Source: a virus. From it: a stretch of DNA of 36,851 bases. Location: positions 1-36,851 of IMG/VR virus record IMGVR_UViG_3300042868_007814, one strand, 5' to 3'. Both the position numbers and the translations under genes were made by a program. This document shows, piece by piece, positions 1-36,851 of this stretch. Each line of letters starts with the position of its first letter. Position 1 is the stretch's first letter. Below the pieces are notes generated by a model. That model did no database searches, was not told the DNA's origin, and saw only the letters and a program-made list of their open reading frames with translations.

Positions 1-127
1 ACTTGGCGTAGGCCACAGCCGAGAACACAGCACCGGCCTTGTTGAAGGCTTGGTACGGAATCCAGCGGAAGCCCATCCAGGTGCCCTTAAGCGTGCCGGA
101 CTGCAACATCTGGCCAGCTAAGAAGTC
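1..127. repeat. Terminal overlap: bases 1-127 are identical to 36725-36851 (circular closure of the contig)
   Basis: Base-by-base comparison of both ends (acttggcgtaggccacagcc...gctaagaagtc) shows 127/127 identity. The repeat lies inside one continuous reverse-strand ORF. Confidence 0.95.
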
Positions 128-10267: not shown

Positions 10268-11146
10268 ATGCAACGCATGGACAGAGAGCTTCAAATCGAA
10301 TCAGTCGAAGGTGAGATTGCCTTGGTCATTGCGTACCAACCCGGCAAAAGTGAAGCCTTGGGCGTTTTGGCTGGAGCCATGCGCTTGATTGAATCGCTCG
10401 ACAAGCTAGACCGGTGTTTACTCTCCAGCGTGGACAGCAATTTAGAGCCCGTCTCTATTTTGAATGACGTACAGCACTCAAGCCTTAAAGTGCTACTGGC
10501 CCGCGCCTTGCGCAAAGTCCCTGACGAACATTTGGCATCTTTGGATTGGAAAAAGTGGCTTGGGGCCTTGCTCGTTAAGGGCAAGCATAAGTTGCTTCAA
10601 AATGTTGATGCAGACGCGCCAGAGCTGCGCCAAAAACTCTCAGAGCTTGAAGCTGATTACAAAGCTGCCCCGGGCGGATTGATCGGCTACACCCCACCAA
10701 CAGTGTCAGACGTGCAAGAAGCGTTAGATGGAGTTGCGAAAGCCAGAGCTTCACTACCAGGCCAGCGCGTAACTGTGCAAACCGAATATGGCGACATTGA
10801 GCTGGTGGAGGTTGTCTCGTCACAGCCTGCAGAGATTGACGGACCCCAGCAAACCATCACTAATTCGGGGGTCGAGTTTTTCAAAGTAAAGGCCCCGGAC
10901 ATGCTTGGCGCGGCCCAATGGCAAGTTTTACGCAATGGCAGAACTGTCAGAGTAGACATGCTTCACCACAAGTGGATTGAGGCGTACCATGCACGGCAAT
11001 TCAGCATTCTTCCAGGCGACAGCCTTAAATGCCAGTTTGAGGAAAGCGTGACCTATGATGCCGCCGGGAACGAGCTAGAGCGCGCCCTATCTGTGATTGA
11101 GGTGCTGGAAGTTATCAGCCCGCCAGTACAACACAACTTGTTGTAA
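10268..11146 (+). CDS. Unknown 292-aa protein, last gene of the cI operon
   Basis: Long clean ORF with no family recognised. No signal peptide or TM segment. Followed by a strong terminator. The region is visibly AT-richer than the rest of the genome. Confidence 0.7.
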   Translation: MQRMDRELQIESVEGEIALVIAYQPGKSEALGVLAGAMRLIESLDKLDRCLLSSVDSNLEPVSILNDVQHSSLKVLLARALRKVPDEHLASLDWKKWLGALLVKGKHKLLQNVDADAPELRQKLSELEADYKAAPGGLIGYTPPTVSDVQEALDGVAKARASLPGQRVTVQTEYGDIELVEVVSSQPAEIDGPQQTITNSGVEFFKVKAPDMLGAAQWQVLRNGRTVRVDMLHHKWIEAYHARQFSILPGDSLKCQFEESVTYDAAGNELERALSVIEVLEVISPPVQHNLL

Positions 11147-13891: not shown

Positions 13892-14293
13892 ATGACCACA
13901 GAAACCACTATCGAGTCCATCCAGTTCACCAACCTACCAGCCCTTGGCGCTGAGTTCGAAGGCGGCAAATTCGCCGGAATTACCACCCAAAAGGATGGAA
14001 CCCATGTCGCCGTAATCTTGCTGCCAAACAAAGCGCAGGAACTGATTTGGAAGAAGGCTATGAACTGGGCTGAAAAGCTCAAAGCCGAACTCCCAAGCCG
14101 CCCCGTTGCCGCCCTTTTGTTTGCCAACGTCAAGAGCGAACTTGATCCCAAATGGCACTGGACCAACGAAACGCACCAGGACGATTCCTCTTCCGCCTGG
14201 GGTTGCTACTTCCACGACGGCCACCAGTACGACTACCACAAGAGCTACGACGGCTGTGCCGTCGTTGTCCGCTTGATTCCCCTCACCGCTTAA
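13892..14293 (+). CDS. DGR target protein 1 (133 aa), DUF1566/C-type-lectin-like, with VR1 at its C-terminus
   Basis: The C-terminus WHWTNETHQDDSSSAWGCYFHDGHQYDYHKSYDGCAVVVR aligns to the TR codon by codon. No signal peptide. Confidence 0.85.
   Translation: MTTETTIESIQFTNLPALGAEFEGGKFAGITTQKDGTHVAVILLPNKAQELIWKKAMNWAEKLKAELPSRPVAALLFANVKSELDPKWHWTNETHQDDSSSAWGCYFHDGHQYDYHKSYDGCAVVVRLIPLTA
14186..14272 (+). repeat. DGR variable repeat VR1 (87 bp)
   Basis: 77/87 identical to TR 15358-15444. All 10 differences lie at TR adenines. Confidence 0.9.
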
Positions 14294-14327
14294 TCCTTCA
14301 ATCCTTTCAACTCCACAGGAGCCAACC

Positions 14328-14786
14328 ATGACCGCAATAACCCTTGAAGCCATAGAGGCCAAACAAACCGAGCTGAGCAAGTTGATTGCCCAGTTCAAGG
14401 CAGAAGCCAATAAGCCCATCGTTTTGACGTTGAACGAAATCAGCATCGAACTGCGCCCCGGCGAGCACTACGCAGGCCCGGTGATCGATGAATCTGGCCG
14501 TATCACCCACCACCTGGTGCTGATGGCCCAGCGCCCCGCTGGCAAGCTGGAATGGCAAGCCGCCATGGACTGGGCCGAAGATGTAGGCGGCTCCCTGCCC
14601 AGCCGTCAAGAGCAGGCACTGCTCTTTGCAAACTGCAAGCCGCACCTCAAACCTGAGTGGCACTGGTCGAACCAAACCCATGAAAGCGATTCCTCTTACG
14701 CCTGGGATTGCCACTTCGGCGACGGCGACCAGAGCACCGGCCCCAAGAGCTACGACGGCTGTGCCGTCGTTGTCCGCAGAGTTTGA
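14328..14786 (+). CDS. DGR target protein 2 (152 aa), paralogue of target 1, with VR2 at its C-terminus
   Basis: AGGAG RBS. The C-terminus WHWSNQTHESDSSYAWDCHFGDGDQSTGPKSYDGCAVVVR aligns to the TR. No signal peptide. Confidence 0.85.
   Translation: MTAITLEAIEAKQTELSKLIAQFKAEANKPIVLTLNEISIELRPGEHYAGPVIDESGRITHHLVLMAQRPAGKLEWQAAMDWAEDVGGSLPSRQEQALLFANCKPHLKPEWHWSNQTHESDSSYAWDCHFGDGDQSTGPKSYDGCAVVVRRV
14691..14777 (+). repeat. DGR variable repeat VR2 (87 bp)
   Basis: 76/87 identical to the TR. All 11 differences lie at TR adenines. Confidence 0.9.
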
Positions 14787-14822
14787 TTCTTCAATCCTTT
14801 AATCCTTTGATCTGAGCCACCC

Positions 14823-15185
14823 ATGGCCCTTCACACCGACCTCCCGATCTACCGCACAGGGGTGCGCCTGCTTGGCCTCGCCGTTAAAGCTCAGGTGCAA
14901 ATGCCGCGCACCGTAAAACGTGCCCTGGGCGAAAAGATCACCCAGCACTGCGTTGACATGCTAGACCTGATGGCCTTGGCCAATGCCACCCAGCGCGACA
15001 TACGTTCCGGACACATTGACCAGCTGCTGACCAAGCAGCGCGCTATCACCGTGCTTTTGCGGGTTAGCCACGACAGCCGGTATATCTCGCCTAAGCTATG
15101 GGCAGATTCCATTGAGCTGCTGGGCAGTGTCGGCAAGCAGGCCGGTGGCTGGATCAAAAACGCCAACAGGGCGCCTGCCGTATGA
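14823..15185 (+). CDS. avd: Accessory variability determinant (Avd-like four-helix-bundle protein)
   Basis: 120 aa, basic and helical. The C-terminus ELLGSVGKQAGGWIKNANR parallels the Bordetella phage BPP-1 Avd C-terminus. It occupies the canonical position between the target genes and the TR. Confidence 0.75.
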   Translation: MALHTDLPIYRTGVRLLGLAVKAQVQMPRTVKRALGEKITQHCVDMLDLMALANATQRDIRSGHIDQLLTKQRAITVLLRVSHDSRYISPKLWADSIELLGSVGKQAGGWIKNANRAPAV

Positions 15186-15877
15186 CAGTCAAGGCTCTCA
15201 TACCCGCGCGCATAGTGAATCTGGTCGCGCCGCTGCCCCACAAAGGCACCGACATGCACACAACGGATACCGCTGCCAGCGCGCAGGCCCGGTCCGGTGC
15301 AGCTCCCATTCTGATCGGCCAAGGCCTTCGCAGTGGTGGCCTTACTAGCGCGAATGGTCCTCTTACGCCTGGAATTGCAACTTCAACAACGGCAACCAGA
15401 ACAACAACCACAAGAGCTACGACGGCTGTGCCGTCGTTGTCCGCAAATTCACACCTGTTTCAATTGCTGGTGCAAGCCTACCTCGATTGCCGACGCACCA
15501 AGCGCAACAGCGCCAGTGCGCTGGCGTTCGAAGCCAATGCCGAGCGCAACCTGTTCGATCTGCACGACGAGCTGGTAAGTGGCGACTATCAGCCTGGGCG
15601 CTCCATTTGCTTCGTTATCACCCACCCCAAGCCGCGCGAAGTATGGGCCGCAGAGTTTCGCGACCGCATCGTGCACCACTTGCTTTACAACGAAATCGCC
15701 CCGGCCTTTCACCGCCGTTTCGTGGCCGACAGTTGCGCATGCATCCCCGGGCGCGGCACGCTGTACGCCGCCAAGCGGCTGGAAGGCCAAGTGCGCAGCT
15801 ATGTGATCCGGCGTTGGTTCAACGCGCGGTTACATGCAGCTGCGCAGGCATTGGCTGGGAGAGCAACATCATGCTAA
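15182..15877 (+). pseudogene. DGR reverse transcriptase remnant (N-terminal third only)
   Basis: Residues 90-207 (LFQLLVQAYLDCRRTKRNS...YQPGRSICFVITHPKPREVWAAEFRDRIVHHLLYNEIAPAFHRRFVADSCACIPGRGT) match the N-terminal DGR-RT motifs. The ORF ends 24 codons later at 15877, with no catalytic-Asp or YxDD region. The ATG at 15182 overlaps the avd stop (ATGA), and the ORF reads through the TR. Confidence 0.75.
15358..15444 (+). repeat. DGR template repeat (TR)
   Basis: tcc tct tac gcc tgg aat tgc aac ttc aac aac ggc aac cag aac aac aac cac aag agc tac gac ggc tgt gcc gtc gtt gtc cgc. Seven AAC codons and one AAT codon in the VR reading frame. An in-frame TAG lies 10 nt upstream, so this frame is not translated. 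Confidence 0.9.
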
Positions 15878-17604
15878 CCCCCCAATTCAACCTGCCTATC
15901 CACGCCGAGCTGGTGGTAGACCTCTTTGCCGGCGGCGGCGGTGCCAGCACTGGCATTGAGCAAGCCATCGGCCGTGCAGTGGACATTGCCATCAACCATG
16001 ACCCCGAGGCCGTGGCGCTGCACCAGGCTAACCACCCGCAGACTCGCCACTTTGTGAGCGATGTGTTTGAGGTTGACCCCGTGACAGTAACCGCCGGTCA
16101 GCCAGTGGGCCTACTGTGGGCCAGCCCGGATTGCAAACATTTCAGCAAGGCCAAGGGAGGCAAGCCCGTGTCAAAGAAGATTCGCAGCTTGGCGGGCGTG
16201 GTGCTGAAATGGGTCAAGGCCCTTGAGCCATCTAACAGAAAGCCGCGAGTGATCTGCTTGGAAAATGTGGAGGAATTTCAGACTTGGGGGCCGCTAGTCA
16301 AGCGCAAAGTGGTCACCACCGACGAACTGGGCAATACAACTGAAACATGGGGCGAGTGGCCATGCCCGCAACGCAAGGGCCAAACATTCAAACGCTGGGT
16401 TAGCAGTTTGCGCAATCTAGGCTATGTGGTGGAGTGGCGCGAGCTGCGCGCCTGCGACTACGGTGCCCCCACCATCCGCAAGCGCCTGTTTCTGGTGGCG
16501 CGTTGTGACGGCCAGCCCATTGTGTGGCCACAGCCTACCCACGCTGCCCCTGACTCGCTGCAGATCAAGGCCAAGAAACTCAAGCCATGGCACACCGCGG
16601 CTGAGTGCATCGACTGGAGCATCCATGCGCCCAGCATTTTTGAGCGCAAAAAGCCATTGGCCGATGCCACCTGCAAGCGAATTGCCAAAGGTATACAGCG
16701 CTATGTGGTCGATGCGGCCGAGCCGTTTATTGTTCAATACCACAGTGCCAAGCGCGCCGGAGACGAGCGCACGGCACCACTGGACAACCCTCTGCCAACT
16801 CAAACCACAGAAAACCGGTTTGCATTGGCTGTACCGACGCTAATTCAAACCGGCTATGGTGAGCGTGAAGGCCAAGCACCGCGCGCGCTGGACATTGGCA
16901 AACCCATAGGCACACTGGTGGGTAGCCAAAAGCATGCGCTGGTGTCTGCATTCCTCGCAAAGAACTACACGGGCGTGGTCGGTTCCGATATGGCCGACCC
17001 GGTGGCTACCGTCACAACCGTTGACCATCACAGCCTTGTCACCGCCAACATGGTGCACCTAGGCCACGGCGAGGGTGCAGGCAGTACCAAGCGACGCAGC
17101 CACGGTATTCGTGACGTTCGGGAGCCAGTCAACACCATCACAGCCAGTGGAGCCGTGGGCGCACTGGTCACCAGCCACATGCTCAAGCTGCGCGGCACCA
17201 ATGTGGGCAGCCCAACCGACGAGCCACTACACACCATCAGCGCCCAAGGCACCCACCATGCCGAAGTGCGCGCCTTCCTCATCAAATATTACGGCACCGA
17301 CCAAGACCCGCGCCTAACCGAGCCCATGCACACCGTACCCACCAAAGACCGCTTTGGCCTGGTGACCGTGCACGGCGAGGAATACGCCATTGTGGACATT
17401 GGCCTGCGCATGCTTACCCCGCGTGAGCTCTACCGCGCCCAAGGCTTTCCAGAGAGCTACGAAATCGACACCGGGGGCGACGGTCGGGCCCTGACCAAGA
17501 CCGCCCAGGTGCGCATGTGTGGAAACAGCGTCTGCCCACCCATGAGTAAAGCCATTGTGGGTGCCAATTACACCGAGCCACAACAACAACGGAGAGCCGC
17601 ATGA
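15871..17604 (+). CDS. DNA (cytosine-5) methyltransferase
   Basis: Motif I DLFAGGGG, motif IV ASPDCKHFS, ENVEEF, and motif X GNSVCPP. GGGAGAG RBS before the ATG at 15871. The track ORF's upstream extension (15487-15870) is Arg-rich read-through. Confidence 0.9.
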   Translation: MLTPQFNLPIHAELVVDLFAGGGGASTGIEQAIGRAVDIAINHDPEAVALHQANHPQTRHFVSDVFEVDPVTVTAGQPVGLLWASPDCKHFSKAKGGKPVSKKIRSLAGVVLKWVKALEPSNRKPRVICLENVEEFQTWGPLVKRKVVTTDELGNTTETWGEWPCPQRKGQTFKRWVSSLRNLGYVVEWRELRACDYGAPTIRKRLFLVARCDGQPIVWPQPTHAAPDSLQIKAKKLKPWHTAAECIDWSIHAPSIFERKKPLADATCKRIAKGIQRYVVDAAEPFIVQYHSAKRAGDERTAPLDNPLPTQTTENRFALAVPTLIQTGYGEREGQAPRALDIGKPIGTLVGSQKHALVSAFLAKNYTGVVGSDMADPVATVTTVDHHSLVTANMVHLGHGEGAGSTKRRSHGIRDVREPVNTITASGAVGALVTSHMLKLRGTNVGSPTDEPLHTISAQGTHHAEVRAFLIKYYGTDQDPRLTEPMHTVPTKDRFGLVTVHGEEYAIVDIGLRMLTPRELYRAQGFPESYEIDTGGDGRALTKTAQVRMCGNSVCPPMSKAIVGANYTEPQQQRRAA

Positions 17605-18065
17605 AAACAGTCTACCGCCGCGCCGCCCACGCCAAGCGCATGCACCGCGACCCCATGGCCGCAGTTCACGTCCTTGCTGCGAACACCGAGCAACCCCGCG
17701 AAAACGCCGACCGCATCATGGTAGCGCTGCGCCTGACCTTTGAAAAACTCAAGATCGGCACGGGCGACTTAGAGCAATTCGACCGCCTAGCCGCCGCTGT
17801 CAACGTGGGCCTGATACGCGCCGAGCTGATAGACCCGCTGGCCGCTGAAACGATGGTGCGGGGTGTCGCAGCATTGATGAACTGCGCGGCCATCCATGAG
17901 CGCCACGGCAAGTTTGGCTTTACCGGGCCTGATCTGGTGGCCATGGGTGACGCTCTAGACCTTTACGAAGGCATTTTGAGGCTGTCCACGCCTAAGCAAA
18001 TGCTGGATGCGCTCGATATGGCGGCTGCGCGGATGCGTGGGCAAGTGCAGGGGGTGGCAGCGTGA
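17601..18065 (+). CDS. Hypothetical protein (154 aa) between the two methyltransferases
   Basis: ATGA overlap with the upstream gene. Ordinary helical composition. Confidence 0.55.
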   Translation: MKTVYRRAAHAKRMHRDPMAAVHVLAANTEQPRENADRIMVALRLTFEKLKIGTGDLEQFDRLAAAVNVGLIRAELIDPLAAETMVRGVAALMNCAAIHERHGKFGFTGPDLVAMGDALDLYEGILRLSTPKQMLDALDMAAARMRGQVQGVAA

Positions 18066-18562
18066 ACACTCAGCGCATCCTTGACCCATGCTGCGGCAGC
18101 CGCATGATGTGGTTTGACCGCCAAAACCCTGATGTGGTATTTGGTGACCAGCGCAGCGAGGTATTGACTGTCACCGACCGCTCGCACGGCAACGCCAGCG
18201 GCACACGCACCCTTCGCATTGAGCCCGATGCACTGCTGGATTTCCGAGCGTTGCCGTACCCGGATGGCACATTCAAACTGGTTGCGTTTGACCCGCCACA
18301 CCTCGTTCGCGCCGGCCCTCGCTCATGGTTGGCTGCCAAGTATGGAAAGCTGGGCACAGACTGGCGCGACGACCTGCGCCAAGGCTTCGCTGAGTGCTTT
18401 CGCGTGCTGGCCACCGATGGCGTTCTAGTGTTCAAGTGGAATGAAACCCAAGTCAAGCTGGGCGAGGTGCTTGCGCTTACGCCCGTGCAGCCGCTCTTTG
18501 GGCACCCGAGCGGGCGTAAGGGGCTTACCCACTGGATCGTGTTTATGAAAGGCGCGGCATGA
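18062..18562 (+). CDS. SAM-dependent DNA methyltransferase, DPPH motif (N6-adenine or N4-cytosine class)
   Basis: ILDPCCGS (SAM-binding-like) and FDPPH (catalytic motif IV). GTG start overlapping the upstream stop. Confidence 0.65.
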   Translation: MNTQRILDPCCGSRMMWFDRQNPDVVFGDQRSEVLTVTDRSHGNASGTRTLRIEPDALLDFRALPYPDGTFKLVAFDPPHLVRAGPRSWLAAKYGKLGTDWRDDLRQGFAECFRVLATDGVLVFKWNETQVKLGEVLALTPVQPLFGHPSGRKGLTHWIVFMKGAA

Positions 18563-18777
18563 CCGACCTCACCGATGCCGAGATAGACAGCATCTGCGAT
18601 GGCTACGTTCAAAACGCCGCGCGGATCCGCTACCTGCGCGCCATGGGCCTGACGGTGCACCGCAAACCCAACGGGCGGCCACTGGTCAACCGTGCACACT
18701 ATGATGCCGTCATGGGCAATGGGGCAAACCGCGCCATGCAAAAGACTGATTTTCAGCCAGTGTGGGGAGTCCACTAA
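18559..18777 (+). CDS. DUF4224-like small protein (possible excision/directionality factor)
   Basis: LTDAEIDSICDGYVQNAARIRYLRAMGLTVHRKPNGRPLVNRAHYD matches the DUF4224 pattern usually found just upstream of phage integrases. Confidence 0.7.
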   Translation: MTDLTDAEIDSICDGYVQNAARIRYLRAMGLTVHRKPNGRPLVNRAHYDAVMGNGANRAMQKTDFQPVWGVH

Positions 18778-19830
18778 ATGCGAAAAGACCGGGAGAGCGC
18801 CAAGGGCTTACTGCCACTTATGGAGGCTCGCCCGTGGGCTGATGGCAAGACCATCACCTACCGCTACCACCCTATCCAAGCCAAGCCCATCAACCTAGGC
18901 ACAGACCGCCTAGCGGCTATCCGCAAGGTGCTGGACTTGCTGGGCAATAACGAAGATCAAGGCACATTGAAATGGGTGTGGGAGCGGTACACAGACCCCG
19001 AAGCGCCCTCCCCGCGCTGGAAAAAGCTAGTGGACAGCACCAAGGCCGACTACCGGCAGGCGTGGAAAGAAATCGAAAAAACCTTCGGCAAGATGCCCGC
19101 CAACCGTATCGACTCCACGATGGTGGCCAGATATGTGCACGTCGAGCGCGCATCGGCCCCCAAACGGGCAAACACTGAAAAAGCTCTGCTATCCAACCTA
19201 TTCGGGCATGGCATTAAATTGGGCGTGTGTACCGTAAACGCAACAATCGGGGTGGAGCCGCACCAGTTGGAAGCTAGAACTGAGGCCCCTCAAGATGCGC
19301 TGCTGGCCAAATTCCTCACATGGTTGACCGAGCAAACGCCCCAGCGCCGCATCGTGGGCATGGCCGCTGAGTACGCCAGTCTGGCCGGCAATCGCAAATG
19401 CGAGTTCTTGCAGCTCACCTGGCCACAGGTAGACCGGGCAGCTGGCGTGATCCGCACCATACGCGCCAAACAGCGCGGCAAGAAGCGGGAGCAGGTAGTG
19501 GAGGTGGTGAGTATCAGCCCCGCGCTGGAGGCCCTTTTGGTGCGCCTGGAGACCATTCGTGAGTTGGACTGTCTCTACGTCTTCCCAACGCGCGACAACA
19601 ACCACTACACCGATTCGGGATTCAAGGCGCTATGGCAGCGCTGCATGCTGGAGGCGATCAAGCAAAAAGTGCTGACGGCTGAGACGCGGTTCACATTCCA
19701 TGACCTGCGGGCCTTCTATGCCACCAAGCATAAGAAGGTGACTGGAGCCCTGCCGGATTTGCATAAAAACCCGGAGACGACTGCCCGGGTGTATGACCGA
19801 AACGTGGAAGTTTTCAGGTCTTCAAACTAG
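18778..19830 (+). CDS. int: Tyrosine recombinase (phage integrase)
   Basis: 350 aa. AGNRKCEF (Arg box), FTFHDLRAFYATKH, and the C-terminal ARVYDR with the catalytic Tyr. Confidence 0.9.
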   Translation: MRKDRESAKGLLPLMEARPWADGKTITYRYHPIQAKPINLGTDRLAAIRKVLDLLGNNEDQGTLKWVWERYTDPEAPSPRWKKLVDSTKADYRQAWKEIEKTFGKMPANRIDSTMVARYVHVERASAPKRANTEKALLSNLFGHGIKLGVCTVNATIGVEPHQLEARTEAPQDALLAKFLTWLTEQTPQRRIVGMAAEYASLAGNRKCEFLQLTWPQVDRAAGVIRTIRAKQRGKKREQVVEVVSISPALEALLVRLETIRELDCLYVFPTRDNNHYTDSGFKALWQRCMLEAIKQKVLTAETRFTFHDLRAFYATKHKKVTGALPDLHKNPETTARVYDRNVEVFRSSN

Positions 19831-19935
19831 CTCCCGTTTCCCAGCGTGGGAAATTTGGCGGGAATTTGCACTGTGTGTATTTGCAGTGCGCTACACAAAA
19901 CAGAGCGCCATCACTAAGGATGGCGCTGTATTAGA

Positions 19936-19983
19936 TGGGGTGGCTGATGGGGCTCGAACCCACGACAACAGGAATCACAATCC
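19936..19983 (-). other. attP core: 3' 48 nt of a tRNA-His(GUG) gene (anticodon loop to CCA end), not a full tRNA
   Basis: The reverse complement GGATTGTGATTCCTGTTGTCGTGGGTTCGAGCCCCATCAGCCACCCCA matches the 3' half of proteobacterial tRNA-His. No D-arm or 5' acceptor strand lies beyond 19983. Confidence 0.8.
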
Positions 19984-27859: not shown

Positions 27860-28037
27860 ATTCTTTCTATTCTGGTTTTACATTGCTTGCATGCTTGGGA
27901 TGGTCTTCTTGATCAGCTGCGGCGTGTTTGGCAGCGTCAAGACGGCGTGGCGGTACATGCGCACGCTGGTGAAGCACATCGCCTTTTTGGCAGCCGCTGG
28001 CTGTGTAGTGGCGTTCATAGTCACATCGAGCCTGTAG
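27852..28037 (+). CDS. Antisense-oriented small 2-TM membrane protein (61 aa)
   Basis: MDKFFLFWFYIACMLGMVFLISCGVFGSVKTAWRYMRTLVKHIAFLAAAGCVVAFIVTSSL. It fills the 161-nt gap between two minus-strand genes, and the minus strand has no ORF there. Confidence 0.45.
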   Translation: MDKFFLFWFYIACMLGMVFLISCGVFGSVKTAWRYMRTLVKHIAFLAAAGCVVAFIVTSSL

Positions 28038-30186
28038 ACAGGGCGCAATCGGCAGCGATTTGCAGCAAGGGCGCGTCTTGGGTGCCCAGCTCGGTATCGG
28101 TGCCCTCGATGGATTCCCGGCGAATCCGCTCCATTTCTTGGGCCACAGTGATGGGCTTGCCGTCTGCGTCTTGGCCTACTACCAGATCAGGACTGGTGCG
28201 CTCGATCTCGTCGGCGCGCGAAAGCACCGAACGAATAAGGGGGGATTTTTGGGGGGGTGGGCTGGAGCTAGATGCTCCGGGTTCGGCTGGCATGTCGCCA
28301 GCCTTGGGGGCTGCAGCGCTTAGCTGGTCTTGCGCTCTTGTTCCCTGGCCATAACCGTTTTGTTCAGGCTGTCCACTATTCCCTGCGCTATCAGGTTTGT
28401 TCGTTGCGCGTGGGTCATTACCGGCCGTGCCTCGGTAGACGGTTTCGGTGATGCGACTGGCTGAGTATTCTTGGTTGAGAGCTGCATAAAGTTTGTCCTC
28501 AATTCCACTGTAGTCTTGTGCGGGTAGTTTGTCAAGTTGAGAGATTTGGGCTTGATCTTTGCCCAGCGAGTTATCGACCACACTGATCGCAACCCGTGGA
28601 TCATCGGCATACTTTGCCTGTAGCTCTCGCATGGTTTGGGCTGAACCCATGTGGGTGCGCGCGTGCTCACGCAATGGCACGGTTCGCCCCATTCGCTCAG
28701 CTCGTGGCAGCGCCCCCATGGTCAAAGCCTCTACCGGGTCGCGGAACGTGTAGACAATACTCACCTCCCGCCCTGCGGCTAACGCCTGGTCAATTTTCGT
28801 CACCGATGAATCTAGTGAGTTCATATTGGTGTCGTAGATGATCTCGGCCCGCTTTGTTACTTCGGGCATCAATTTAAGCCCGCTGCTTTTCCCGGCCCCT
28901 GTGCCACCGGCCGTGAACAACACCACCGGGTCACGCCCTGCCGGGGTAGGTTGCGCCAGCTTCTCAGCGTAAAGTCGTTTTACAAAAGCACTGGCGGGCT
29001 CATGCACATCGGCTGACTTGGTTCTATCTGCTCGGTAGGCTGGGGAAAGTTCGCGCGCATCGTCCGTGTTCAAAATGCGGCCGTTGTCGGTGCTTTTTAT
29101 CTTGGCGTATTCGTCCGCAGCGCCTTTGAAGTCTTTCTCAATCCTTGCGGCCATTTCCTGAGTGATGGCGTTATTCACAGTCTGTCGCTCTGGCAACTGT
29201 GTCATTTGGCGCACGGCCTCGGCGGGTGGCGTAGCGTCCCGCACGTCTTGGGCAAGCGTGAGGTTATGGGTCATCACAGCGTCAACCTGCTCTTGCGTGA
29301 GGGGTGTAGATTCAGGTTTGGCAGCCGGTTGGGCTTCGGGTGCGACTACCGGCTTAGGTGCTCCAGCCTTGGCCCTGCGGGCTCCCGCCACGGCATACGC
29401 AGCAAATCCGGCGGGAACCAGCGAAGACACTGTCAACCCCACCGGGTCAAGTGGGTCGTATTGCTTGGCCAAATCTTCGTAATTCGCACCCTTAAGAATT
29501 TCGCGGGTGGCTGCTTGCTGCGCCATAAAAGACCCCGGCCCGCCAGCAGCCCATAGCCCAACTGTTTTCGGTATGGACCCGGGCGCGGCCACCGGCAACA
29601 TGACACTGGCGGTAGACACAACGCCAGCCACCGCCCCCACCTTCATGCGGGTGTTCTTGTCAACGCCTTGCTGTTTCAAGTCGTCTGAGGTTTGCATGCC
29701 CTCGTCTACCCCGAGCATGACCGCGCCCGGTACGCCGCCACCAGTCACCGTGTAGCCAACAGCCTTGACCGCAAATCGAGGTAAATCAAATGCTAGTTTT
29801 TCCGCAAGCCCTGCGGTAGCTGGATCAGGTCGGTAGTGACGCGATACGTCGCGCAACGATGAACCTGCAGCGGATGTGGTGTCAATTCCCTCCGCGTCAA
29901 CTTTGGCACGGTGCAGTTCAACATCACGTTTTTCTTTGTCGCTCTGCAAGCTAAACATACCCCCTGCGCTGGCAATGCTGCCCTGCCCATATGCGGCATC
30001 GGCTTGAGCGGCCCCCTTGAGCACATCGGCAACCATCGCCCCCGCCTCCGAAACGCCAGCGGTTATGCCTCGAAATGGGGCACTCCAGCCATTCCACTTT
30101 GATGCTGGTTTGGGTTTTTCTGGCGGCTGGGCTGCCAGTGTGGTGATAGCGGTTTCGGTGTCCGCTTGGTACAGGTCGTCTAGCAT
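28021..30186 (-). CDS. Internal virion protein (721 aa) with hydrophobic N-terminal half and a zeta-toxin-like P-loop kinase domain
   Basis: Residues approximately 365-580: ILNTDDARELSPAY...HEPASAFVKRLY...VVLFTAGGTGAGKSS (Walker A)...RAERMGRTVPLREHARTH, the zeta-toxin family layout. The N-terminal half contains Gly/Ala-rich TM-like segments. Confidence 0.55.
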   Translation of the reverse strand: MLDDLYQADTETAITTLAAQPPEKPKPASKWNGWSAPFRGITAGVSEAGAMVADVLKGAAQADAAYGQGSIASAGGMFSLQSDKEKRDVELHRAKVDAEGIDTTSAAGSSLRDVSRHYRPDPATAGLAEKLAFDLPRFAVKAVGYTVTGGGVPGAVMLGVDEGMQTSDDLKQQGVDKNTRMKVGAVAGVVSTASVMLPVAAPGSIPKTVGLWAAGGPGSFMAQQAATREILKGANYEDLAKQYDPLDPVGLTVSSLVPAGFAAYAVAGARRAKAGAPKPVVAPEAQPAAKPESTPLTQEQVDAVMTHNLTLAQDVRDATPPAEAVRQMTQLPERQTVNNAITQEMAARIEKDFKGAADEYAKIKSTDNGRILNTDDARELSPAYRADRTKSADVHEPASAFVKRLYAEKLAQPTPAGRDPVVLFTAGGTGAGKSSGLKLMPEVTKRAEIIYDTNMNSLDSSVTKIDQALAAGREVSIVYTFRDPVEALTMGALPRAERMGRTVPLREHARTHMGSAQTMRELQAKYADDPRVAISVVDNSLGKDQAQISQLDKLPAQDYSGIEDKLYAALNQEYSASRITETVYRGTAGNDPRATNKPDSAGNSGQPEQNGYGQGTRAQDQLSAAAPKAGDMPAEPGASSSSPPPQKSPLIRSVLSRADEIERTSPDLVVGQDADGKPITVAQEMERIRRESIEGTDTELGTQDAPLLQIAADCALSTGSM

Positions 30187-36578: not shown

Positions 36579-36851
36579 TTACTGGAAGTCGATCTGTACG
36601 ACTTTCTTATCGTCTTGACGGCCTGCACCGTAAGACGCCGCCATAGACACTTGCCAAGCGTCCTTCTTGTCACCCCGGCGGGTAACGTTGCCCTCTTCGT
36701 AGCCCTTGCCGAAGTGGATACCAGACTTGGCGTAGGCCACAGCCGAGAACACAGCACCGGCCTTGTTGAAGGCTTGGTACGGAATCCAGCGGAAGCCCAT
36801 CCAGGTGCCCTTAAGCGTGCCGGACTGCAACATCTGGCCAGCTAAGAAGTC
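36579..36851 (-). CDS. Major capsid protein, 3' part (continues from 724..1 across the circular join)
   Basis: Track ORF ...GTLKGTWMGFRWIPYQAFNKAGAVFSAVAYAKSGIHFGKGYEEG...VQIDFQ. In frame with the 5' part. 36725-36851 duplicates 1-127. Confidence 0.75.
   Translation of the reverse strand, partial: DFLAGQMLQSGTLKGTWMGFRWIPYQAFNKAGAVFSAVAYAKSGIHFGKGYEEGNVTRRGDKKDAWQVSMAASYGAGRQDDKKVVQIDFQ

Follow-up and report, generated by a model that had tools for sequence, protein, structure and literature searches.

An in-frame fusion of a truncated DGR reverse transcriptase to a DUF7220 gene remnant in a temperate phage of Burkholderiales

How does a diversity-generating retroelement (DGR) come to have its targets, template and accessory gene in place with only the first third of its reverse transcriptase (RT), and what does that leave of its activity? 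The question is raised by IMG/VR record IMGVR_UViG_3300042868_007814, analysed here over its whole length of 36,851 nt (hereafter the window). The first 127 nt of the window recur exactly as its last 127 nt, and because the two ends share this sequence the window is a closed circular genome of ~36.7 kb; the RT catalytic domain, which is missing from the window, is therefore missing from the whole phage, the genome being circular and complete. Its genes encode a portal protein, TerL, virion proteins, a tail fibre, a spanin, NinB, NinG, RecT, YqaJ and a CI-like repressor, and it is the complete genome of a temperate Burkholderiales phage whose host family is probably Comamonadaceae. Its integration module consists of the following features:

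18559-18777, plus strand: putative excisionase, 72 aa (phrog_8896 excisionase, E = 2e-4)
18778-19830, plus strand: tyrosine integrase, 350 aa (PF00589)
19928-19983, minus strand: attP core similar to the 3' portion of a tRNA-His gene (T-arm and GTG anticodon loop read from the sequence)

Phage genes flank the integrase and attP core on either side. ARAGORN found no whole tRNA at the attP core, and sequences matching the core at 91-100% lie next to integrases in five related loci (L050, L065, L106, L128 and L138; loci among the relatives are given as L numbers, database proteins as P numbers). The DNA of L324 is 84.5% identical to the window across the 72-aa putative excisionase and the start of the integrase.

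The components of the retroelement upstream of its RT descend, as does the locus as a whole, from a BPP-1-type DGR:

13892-14293, plus strand: DGR target gene 1, 133 aa, with a C-terminal VR1 (ORF; weak, sub-cut-off Lcl_C Pfam match)
14186-14272, in target gene 1: variable repeat VR1, repeating the 87-nt template repeat (TR)
14328-14786, plus strand: DGR target gene 2, 152 aa, a paralogue of target 1, with VR2 (ORF)
14691-14777, in target gene 2: variable repeat VR2, also repeating the 87-nt TR
14823-15185, plus strand: avd, 120 aa, intact (Pfam bAvd PF22296, 42.7 bits against a cut-off of 40)
15358-15444, plus strand: TR, 87 nt with 24 A, rich in AAC codons (repeat family and alignment)

The TR differs from VR1 at 10 positions and from VR2 at 11, and every mismatch (10/10 and 11/11) falls at a TR adenine, so that non-adenine differences number 0 among the 21. 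Because of this pattern, together with the presence of avd, the locus is a genuine DGR with past adenine mutagenesis. Both VRs sit at the C-termini of their target proteins, whose matches to Lcl_C (PF07603, C-type-lectin-like) reach 24.8 and 19.8 bits, under the cut-off of 34.9; homologues of the targets carry PF07603 in precomputed Pfam assignments. TR, VR1 and VR2 end in an identical GC-rich 3' sequence (GGCTGTGCCGTCGTTGTCCGC). The avd gene, adjacent to the TR, supplies the DGR accessory protein through its bAvd match and is equal in length to the avd of relatives L008 and L292. The region from the avd stop to the TR showed no codon-phase periodicity in a coding test. No stable hairpin was predicted 3' of the VRs (z = 0.8 and -0.9), and a repeated AT-rich motif, TTCAATCCTTT, lies where the hairpin was looked for.

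The window thus resembles the Bordetella phage BPP-1 DGR (avd-TR-brt, with its VR in mtd) in its components and in the order of avd, TR and RT, and the two are further alike in the adenine-specific TR-to-VR changes, the C-terminal VR of a target that is, in the window, putatively lectin-like, and the temperate phage that carries them. In place of the tail fibre target of BPP-1, the window has two small tandem paralogues (133 and 152 aa) in its early/recombination region; its TR abuts the RT coding region, whereas 144 nt of non-coding spacer separate TR and RT in BPP-1; and, unlike BPP-1, it has no predicted hairpin downstream of the VRs. Its RT differs as well, being cut to residues 1-119, and has no YxDD.

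The RT remnant belongs to a 231-aa ORF (15182-15877) whose presumed start overlaps the avd stop (ATGA, 15182-15185). Two references delimited it: an RT of 365 aa rebuilt from relative L002, a JGI contig with avd, TR and an RT gene that one frameshift divides in two, and a family HMM of 366 positions made from 148 distinct full-length RTs among 322 related loci gathered from viral, genome and metagenome collections. In tblastn against the window, residues 1-119 of the L002-derived RT aligned to 15443-15799 (83% identity, E = 2e-63), and the next best match had E = 0.77. The HMM matched at profile positions 1-121 alone (nt 15443-15805), and a search of all six frames of the whole genome with filters off (--max, E ≤ 100) returned no RT beyond position 121. 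None of the 38 ORFs scanned against Pfam or PHROGs matched RVT_1, and the 231-aa ORF itself gave no such Pfam match at E ≤ 0.01, because the RT fragment is too short. Motif 3 (YLKCDLANFF), motif 4 (GLPIGNLSSQFFANV) and YVDD, as read in intact relatives, are all missing, leaving the remnant without any catalytic Asp motif and the locus without the full set of motifs 1-7, including YxDD, of a complete DGR-clade RT. Because an intact RT, a defining requirement, is missing, the locus is, as judged from its sequence, a DGR remnant and not a functional autonomous DGR. The first-pass annotation, made from the letters alone, had described an RT cut to its N-terminal third, no catalytic continuation in any frame, and intact VRs, TR and avd; each of these points was borne out by the searches and alignments above.

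Where the RT remnant stops, a fragment of another gene begins in the same frame:

15443-15799, plus strand: RT remnant, residues 1-119 of a ~365-aa DGR RT, up to GRGTLYAAKRLEGQVRS (tblastn and family HMM)
15791-15802, plus strand: junction GTGCGCAGCTAT (V-R-S-Y), the putative crossover site, a sequence that both parent genes can carry
15800-15877, plus strand: DUF7220 3' remnant, the last 25 codons (Y207-C231) and stop, in frame with the RT remnant (tblastn of the tail)

Read in the RT frame, the tail (SYVIRRWFNARLHAAAQALAGRATSC) finds matches at the C-terminal ends of ORFs of 81-82 aa in L249, L043/L275 and L033/L089 (tblastn, E 3e-7 to 1e-5), and these ORFs encode small membrane proteins of DUF7220 (PF23858, E = 2.9e-28). 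The DUF7220 database protein P0123, which ends ...SYVIRRWFNARLHAAAQALAGRARTC, has a C-terminus (...SVARSYVIRRWFNARLHAAAQALAGRARTC) nearly the same as the tail in the window. With only the last 25-26 residues left of a family of ~81-83 aa (70-position profile), the tail is a gene fragment and not a member of DUF7220 in its own right. A diverged RT C-terminus was considered for the 26-aa tail and ruled out, the HMM having no match there and DUF7220 accounting for the sequence. Among the loci (blastn-short) and viral contigs (exact-pattern scan), a DNA-level match to 15800-15870 was found only in contig L001; the origin of this segment was recognised only at the translated level.

RT homology of the DGR relatives stops at 15798-15802 and the DUF7220/methylase DNA homology from L323, L324 and L325 begins at exactly 15800; since the homology boundaries are known on both sides, the junction is pinned to within a few bases. 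It is read as CAA GTG CGC AGC TAT GTG ATC. The RTs of five aligned relatives all carry GTGCGCAGC (V-R-S) here, and the RT of L033 carries GTGCGCAGCTAT at the junction position; on the DUF7220 side, V-A/V-R-S-Y is encoded at the matching place, the DUF7220 of L249 having GCCCGCAGCTATG. Two points of the earlier account are corrected by these results: the breakpoint lies at 15799/15800 according to the homology boundaries, and not at the methylase start, and the tail, which had been called unrelated sequence, is the DUF7220 3' end according to tblastn, the PF23858 relatives and P0123.

Immediately downstream lie three further genes:

15871-17604, plus strand: C5 cytosine DNA methyltransferase, 577 aa, intact (PF00145, E = 1e-30, 107.8 bits against a cut-off of 22)
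17601-18065, plus strand: 154-aa protein of unknown function (phrog_20828)
18062-18562, plus strand: second DNA methyltransferase, 166 aa (phrog_954, E = 7e-70)

The stop of the 231-aa ORF overlaps the ATG of the C5 methylase (PF00145) at 15871, as had been noted at first reading, and the two share 7 nt. Residues 1-577 of the methylase align with 80 viral homologues, that is, over its full length. In L323-L325, contigs bearing P0123 and P0137, DUF7220 is likewise followed by a gene that overlaps it by 7 nt, as in the window; this gene is annotated as a C5 methylase in L324 and L325, and in L323 the DNA of the gene aligns with the methylase of the window. An intact RT is followed directly by a C5 methylase in relatives L106, L096 and L197, and methylase homology begins at 15870 in all relatives. 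Insertion of the methylase into the RT was therefore ruled out, the methylase being a usual neighbour of intact RTs. Of the first-pass proposal that the DGR was recently frozen when a methylase module displaced it, the first half is kept as the best-supported state of the locus, and the second gives way to a deletion or an illegitimate exchange over a few shared bases.

The sequence on either side of the junction suggests instead that the fusion arose by a single illegitimate recombination at a short common sequence of 9-12 nt (GTGCGCAGCTAT, or at least CGCAGC), which would have brought about codon 57 of a DUF7220 gene lying downstream into frame behind RT codon 119. Such an event would have cost the RT its C-terminus and all its catalytic motifs (the Asp of motif 3, motif 4 and YVDD) and DUF7220 its 5' two thirds, together with any genes in between, while leaving the methylases, excisionase, integrase and remaining phage functions untouched. 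In its most economical form it would be an intragenomic deletion of at least ~1.1 kb from an ancestral order of RT, (0-2.6 kb), DUF7220 and methylase; a spacing like that of L249 gives a deletion of ~1.1 kb. This ancestral order is plausible because L249, L043/L275 and L033/L089 have an intact RT with DUF7220 0.2-2.6 kb further downstream, and because DUF7220 and the methylase are paired in L323-L325; RT, DUF7220 and methylase occur together in no single relative. We infer that the crossover lay within the microhomology, the direct parents not having been found: no closer intact allele above 87% protein identity was present in the viral, genome and metagenome collections, and megablast against GenBank phages returned only short methylase matches. 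Comparison with related phages, proposed in the first-pass annotation, thus resolved the breakpoint and yielded no near-identical intact allele (closest 87% protein). The product would be a chimeric ORF without DNA polymerisation, in which case mutagenic retrohoming would have stopped, with VR1 and VR2 frozen at their last alleles. To this explanation as a whole, a microhomology-mediated deletion that left a recently inactivated, frozen DGR, we assign a probability of roughly 0.78.

The same junction could have formed by illegitimate recombination between two phages at co-infection, with the DUF7220'-methylase-...-excisionase-integrase arm of a DGR-less phage taking the place of all sequence beyond RT codon 119. 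We regard this origin, which comes close to the displacement proposed at first reading, as possible and considerably less probable. Arms of the kind required do exist: L324 and L325 have DUF7220-methylase-...-72 aa-integrase with no DGR nearby and are 67-85% identical in DNA to positions 15800-18847 of the window, no RT lies upstream of the closest DUF7220 tail (P0123/L323), and the modules are mosaic, with the methylase upstream of, downstream of or directly beside the RT depending on the locus. However, a simple deletion is enough, since relatives with a DGR already have a co-oriented DUF7220 downstream of the RT, and others already have the methylase directly after it. Both arms have equally distant relatives, which gives no discrimination between exchange and deletion, and the functional result would be the same.

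Whichever way the junction formed, loss of DGR activity would be expected because the RT catalytic domain is missing: in BPP-1, homing needs a catalytically active Brt, and the SMAA mutant shows no homing (PMC3240598). The inactivation also appears to be recent, because there is no non-adenine TR/VR difference, the RT remnant is undecayed, and avd and the targets are intact. At the 61 columns that are ≥95% conserved among intact RTs the remnant has 0 deviations, against a mean of 0.71 in intact controls. The identity of the 33-bp 3' ends of the TR and VRs, offered at first reading as a sign of recent activity, is weak evidence, and the 0 non-adenine differences and 0/61 deviations serve better. 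Both VR proteins were found on other contigs as the same exact allele only, in few, possibly related assemblies whose consensus hides minority variants, and no VR-only variant occurred in a collection of 15 billion proteins (90% clusters, homologue search), where the nearest relative was 76% identical; for target 2, this was the nearest non-identical sequence among 682 homologues. The identical VR alleles, the lack of VR variants and the undamaged RT remnant, avd and targets support a frozen DGR, so that a recently inactivated, frozen element is the best-supported reading of the sequence and the two hypervariable genes are most likely frozen.

A non-autonomous element would look much the same. 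Its targets, with avd, the TR and the RNA following it, could still be diversified if a related DGR prophage, or another element in the same cell, provided the RT in trans. We think this arrangement improbable, though in BPP-1 plasmid-borne avd, TR and brt act on a prophage deleted for them (PMC3240598; PMC5758913). Priming in BPP-1 also needs RNA downstream of the TR (PMC6182149), and here, where the TR abuts the RT ORF, 355 nt downstream of the TR survive and may include an equivalent RNA element. The remnant, avd, TR and VRs are undecayed, and the avd 3' end, the TR and the 355 nt beyond it are kept, as expected under trans-complementation; a recent deletion accounts equally well for this lack of decay. 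Candidate helpers can share a host, since two DGRs of the same family occur per genome in MESE01 (L089, L159), P. palmensis (L132, L157) and a Rhodoferax MAG (L090, L122), and the left end of contig L001 derives from a second DGR lineage in the same sample. However, the bRT-Avd complex is specific to its own DGR RNA (PMC6182149), and a helper ~75-85% identical might fail; the occurrence of only the identical allele of each target on several contigs, without a VR variant, is mildly against continued diversification; and among relatives truncated alleles are few and their breakpoints unrelated, the pattern expected of dead ends. By extension, and with similarly low confidence, DGR cassettes of this make-up (targets, avd, TR and downstream RNA) that lack an RT may survive as non-autonomous 'satellite' diversifiers, with a DGR prophage in the same cell rewriting their VRs through its own RT. 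Such cassettes, if real, would be systematically missed because DGR surveys start from the RT gene.

In the wider family a full RT is the rule. Intact DGRs of related Burkholderiales and Pseudomonas phages and prophages, for example loci L243, L003, L006, L106 and L249 and the cultured Burkholderia phage Magia and Pseudomonas phage SC_8_H2H8_2017, show 75-87% protein identity over the RT remnant. These relatives share with the window the arrangement of targets, avd, TR and RT beside an integrase and the same methylase or DUF7220 neighbours; they differ in having a full RT of ~360-370 aa, which is absent from the window and its near-identical copies. A protein search had returned only proteins of <250 aa, which raised the idea of widespread RT truncation. 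This was ruled out at the DNA level, where 226 of 245 related loci with an RT match have a full-length RT; because of that count, the short protein matches are attributed to retrieval bias and contig ends. In 11 loci the RT is cut by the contig end, and the 8 others comprise the window's own allele (L001), three that are not gene loss (the L002 frameshift, a duplicated start in L090, and L026, which ends 38 nt before the contig end) and four that lack part of the RT. Full RTs are thus kept in ~96% of evaluable loci, and RT loss was seen in 4 loci besides the window's allele among ~234 not ended by a contig edge. In these four the RT is partly missing within the contig, after residue 245 in L008, after 222 in L292 and after 316 in L285, with only a C-terminal remnant in L227; the database protein P0053 is an RT with an internal in-frame deletion. 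As in the window, the RT of these five is interrupted or partly deleted while neighbouring DGR parts remain, yet their breakpoints are independent and none has the RT::DUF7220 junction. RT loss is rare and scattered, in keeping with short-lived dead ends.

A chimeric join at the short repeat at 15799/15800, hiding a real phage with an intact RT, could be imagined because the junction lies inside a 9-12-nt sequence that two genes can share, and because the left end of the metagenomic contig L001, which falls in a conserved stretch of RT, is itself suspicious. Misassembly is nevertheless very unlikely, since a repeat of 9-12 nt, far under assembler k-mer sizes, is too short to mislead an assembler and the junction recurs in other contigs, although these assemblies may come from related samples. 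The independently assembled Logan contig L001 (SRR27420588, 4321 nt) has 0 differences to the window over 15501-19694, 4.2 kb that include the junction, and an 11,018-nt JGI/NCBI contig (3300059473, recorded for two samples), compared by ORF and gene table, has an identical 231-aa fusion ORF and the same gene order. Moreover, the fusion is in frame with its stop/start overlap kept, and the genome forms a closed circle of normal size. That the RT is complete and merely split, recoded or placed elsewhere (by a frameshift, an intron or a second ORF) can be set aside almost entirely, for although a single frameshift does divide the RT of L002 into two ORFs, neither the unfiltered six-frame HMM search of the circular genome, nor tblastn, nor the RVT_1 scan found a second part.

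In the literature on DGRs, the large surveys classify elements from the RT and treat activity, not RT loss. The words truncated, degenerate, nonfunctional and decay do not occur in Wu et al. (PMC5758913), and 'inactive' in Roux et al. is an activity class inferred from VR variation. The present case illustrates a known process at good resolution, the decay of a gene in a mosaic phage genome, and its importance is modest: it would be a clean natural example of the death of a DGR, in which one in-frame, short-homology deletion took the catalytic core and left the other parts untouched. That importance would rise if reads showed continuing adenine mutagenesis. For annotation, the 231-aa ORF named 'RNA-directed DNA polymerase' would be better read as a dead RT::DUF7220 chimera. 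For the phage, hypervariability of its VR genes should not be assumed, and for the family, the locus provides a natural test case of the ability of related DGR RTs to use a TR/avd cassette that is not their own.

The first and last 127 nt of the window (1-127 and 36725-36851) overlap exactly, so that it represents a complete, circularly closed phage genome. This genome measures about 36.7 kb and has a GC content of 57.8%, and its minus-strand structural genes continue across the window ends. Within the virion gene block, residues 445-532 of a 721-aa protein (28021-30186, minus strand) correspond to a Zeta_toxin (PF06414) kinase-like domain. Elsewhere, the integrase adjoins a fragment resembling part of a tRNA gene:

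19928-19983, minus strand: fragment like the 3' part of tRNA-His, comprising the T-arm and the GTG anticodon loop

As it lies beside the integrase and is flanked on both sides by phage genes, we identify this fragment as attP. Matches to it (91-100%) were found next to integrases in five related loci (L050, L065, L106, L128 and L138), and L128 holds two copies about 10 kb apart.

Between avd and the RT, a reading frame is open across 15182-15443; it begins with an ATG that overlaps the stop codon of avd, spans the TR and enters the RT. In 77 of 83 relatives the same frame stays open over 270 nt or more, and its translation, 'MTVKALxPVR..NLVAPL', is conserved. Codon periodicity was absent from the region (column entropy 0.62, 0.64, 0.68), and conservation here therefore looks to be at the nucleotide level, as of a DGR RNA. 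Downstream of the VRs, at the place occupied by a hairpin in Bordetella phage BPP-1, neither VR in the window has a predicted stable hairpin; an AT-rich repeated motif is found there instead:

14281-14307 and 14774-14808: TTCAATCCTTT / TTAATCCTTT, directly 3' of both VRs

Possibly, this motif serves as the target-site element in DGRs of this family.

The Logan contig L001 differs from the window at 46 positions, all within about its first 112 nt (L001 1-112, corresponding to window 15389-15500). This end matches, at 97% identity, the 3' end of the TR and the 5' end of the RT in another DGR lineage, represented by L048 and by L119 (from Dechloromonas). The contig end is either a genuine recombinant or chimeric, joined where the RT is conserved. 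Whichever origin applies, sample SRR27420588 holds a second DGR lineage.

Proteins listed by a homologue search with the 142-aa RT fragment were all ≤248 aa, unlike the DNA-level relatives, among which full-length RTs predominate. Candidate retrieval in the protein search thus appears biased to short sequences, and its match lengths are no guide to biology. In the closest relative in architecture, the JGI contig L002, a single frameshift at ...NWSRP|AYYLKCD (10640-10680) splits the RT into two ORFs, reflecting either a sequencing error or a further inactivation. Five other RTs, four in related loci and one a database protein, are damaged at different points:

L008, 6001-6753: RT truncated just past YVDDFVLLH
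L292, 1208-1885: RT truncated past FANVL
L285, 6001-7209: RT truncated past residue 316
L227, 8659-9030: C-terminal RT remnant only, adjoining two VR-type genes and a methylase
P0053 (protein): internal deletion, in frame, that brings IPGRG next to SHSH

These five are independent decay events among RTs of the same family as that of the window.
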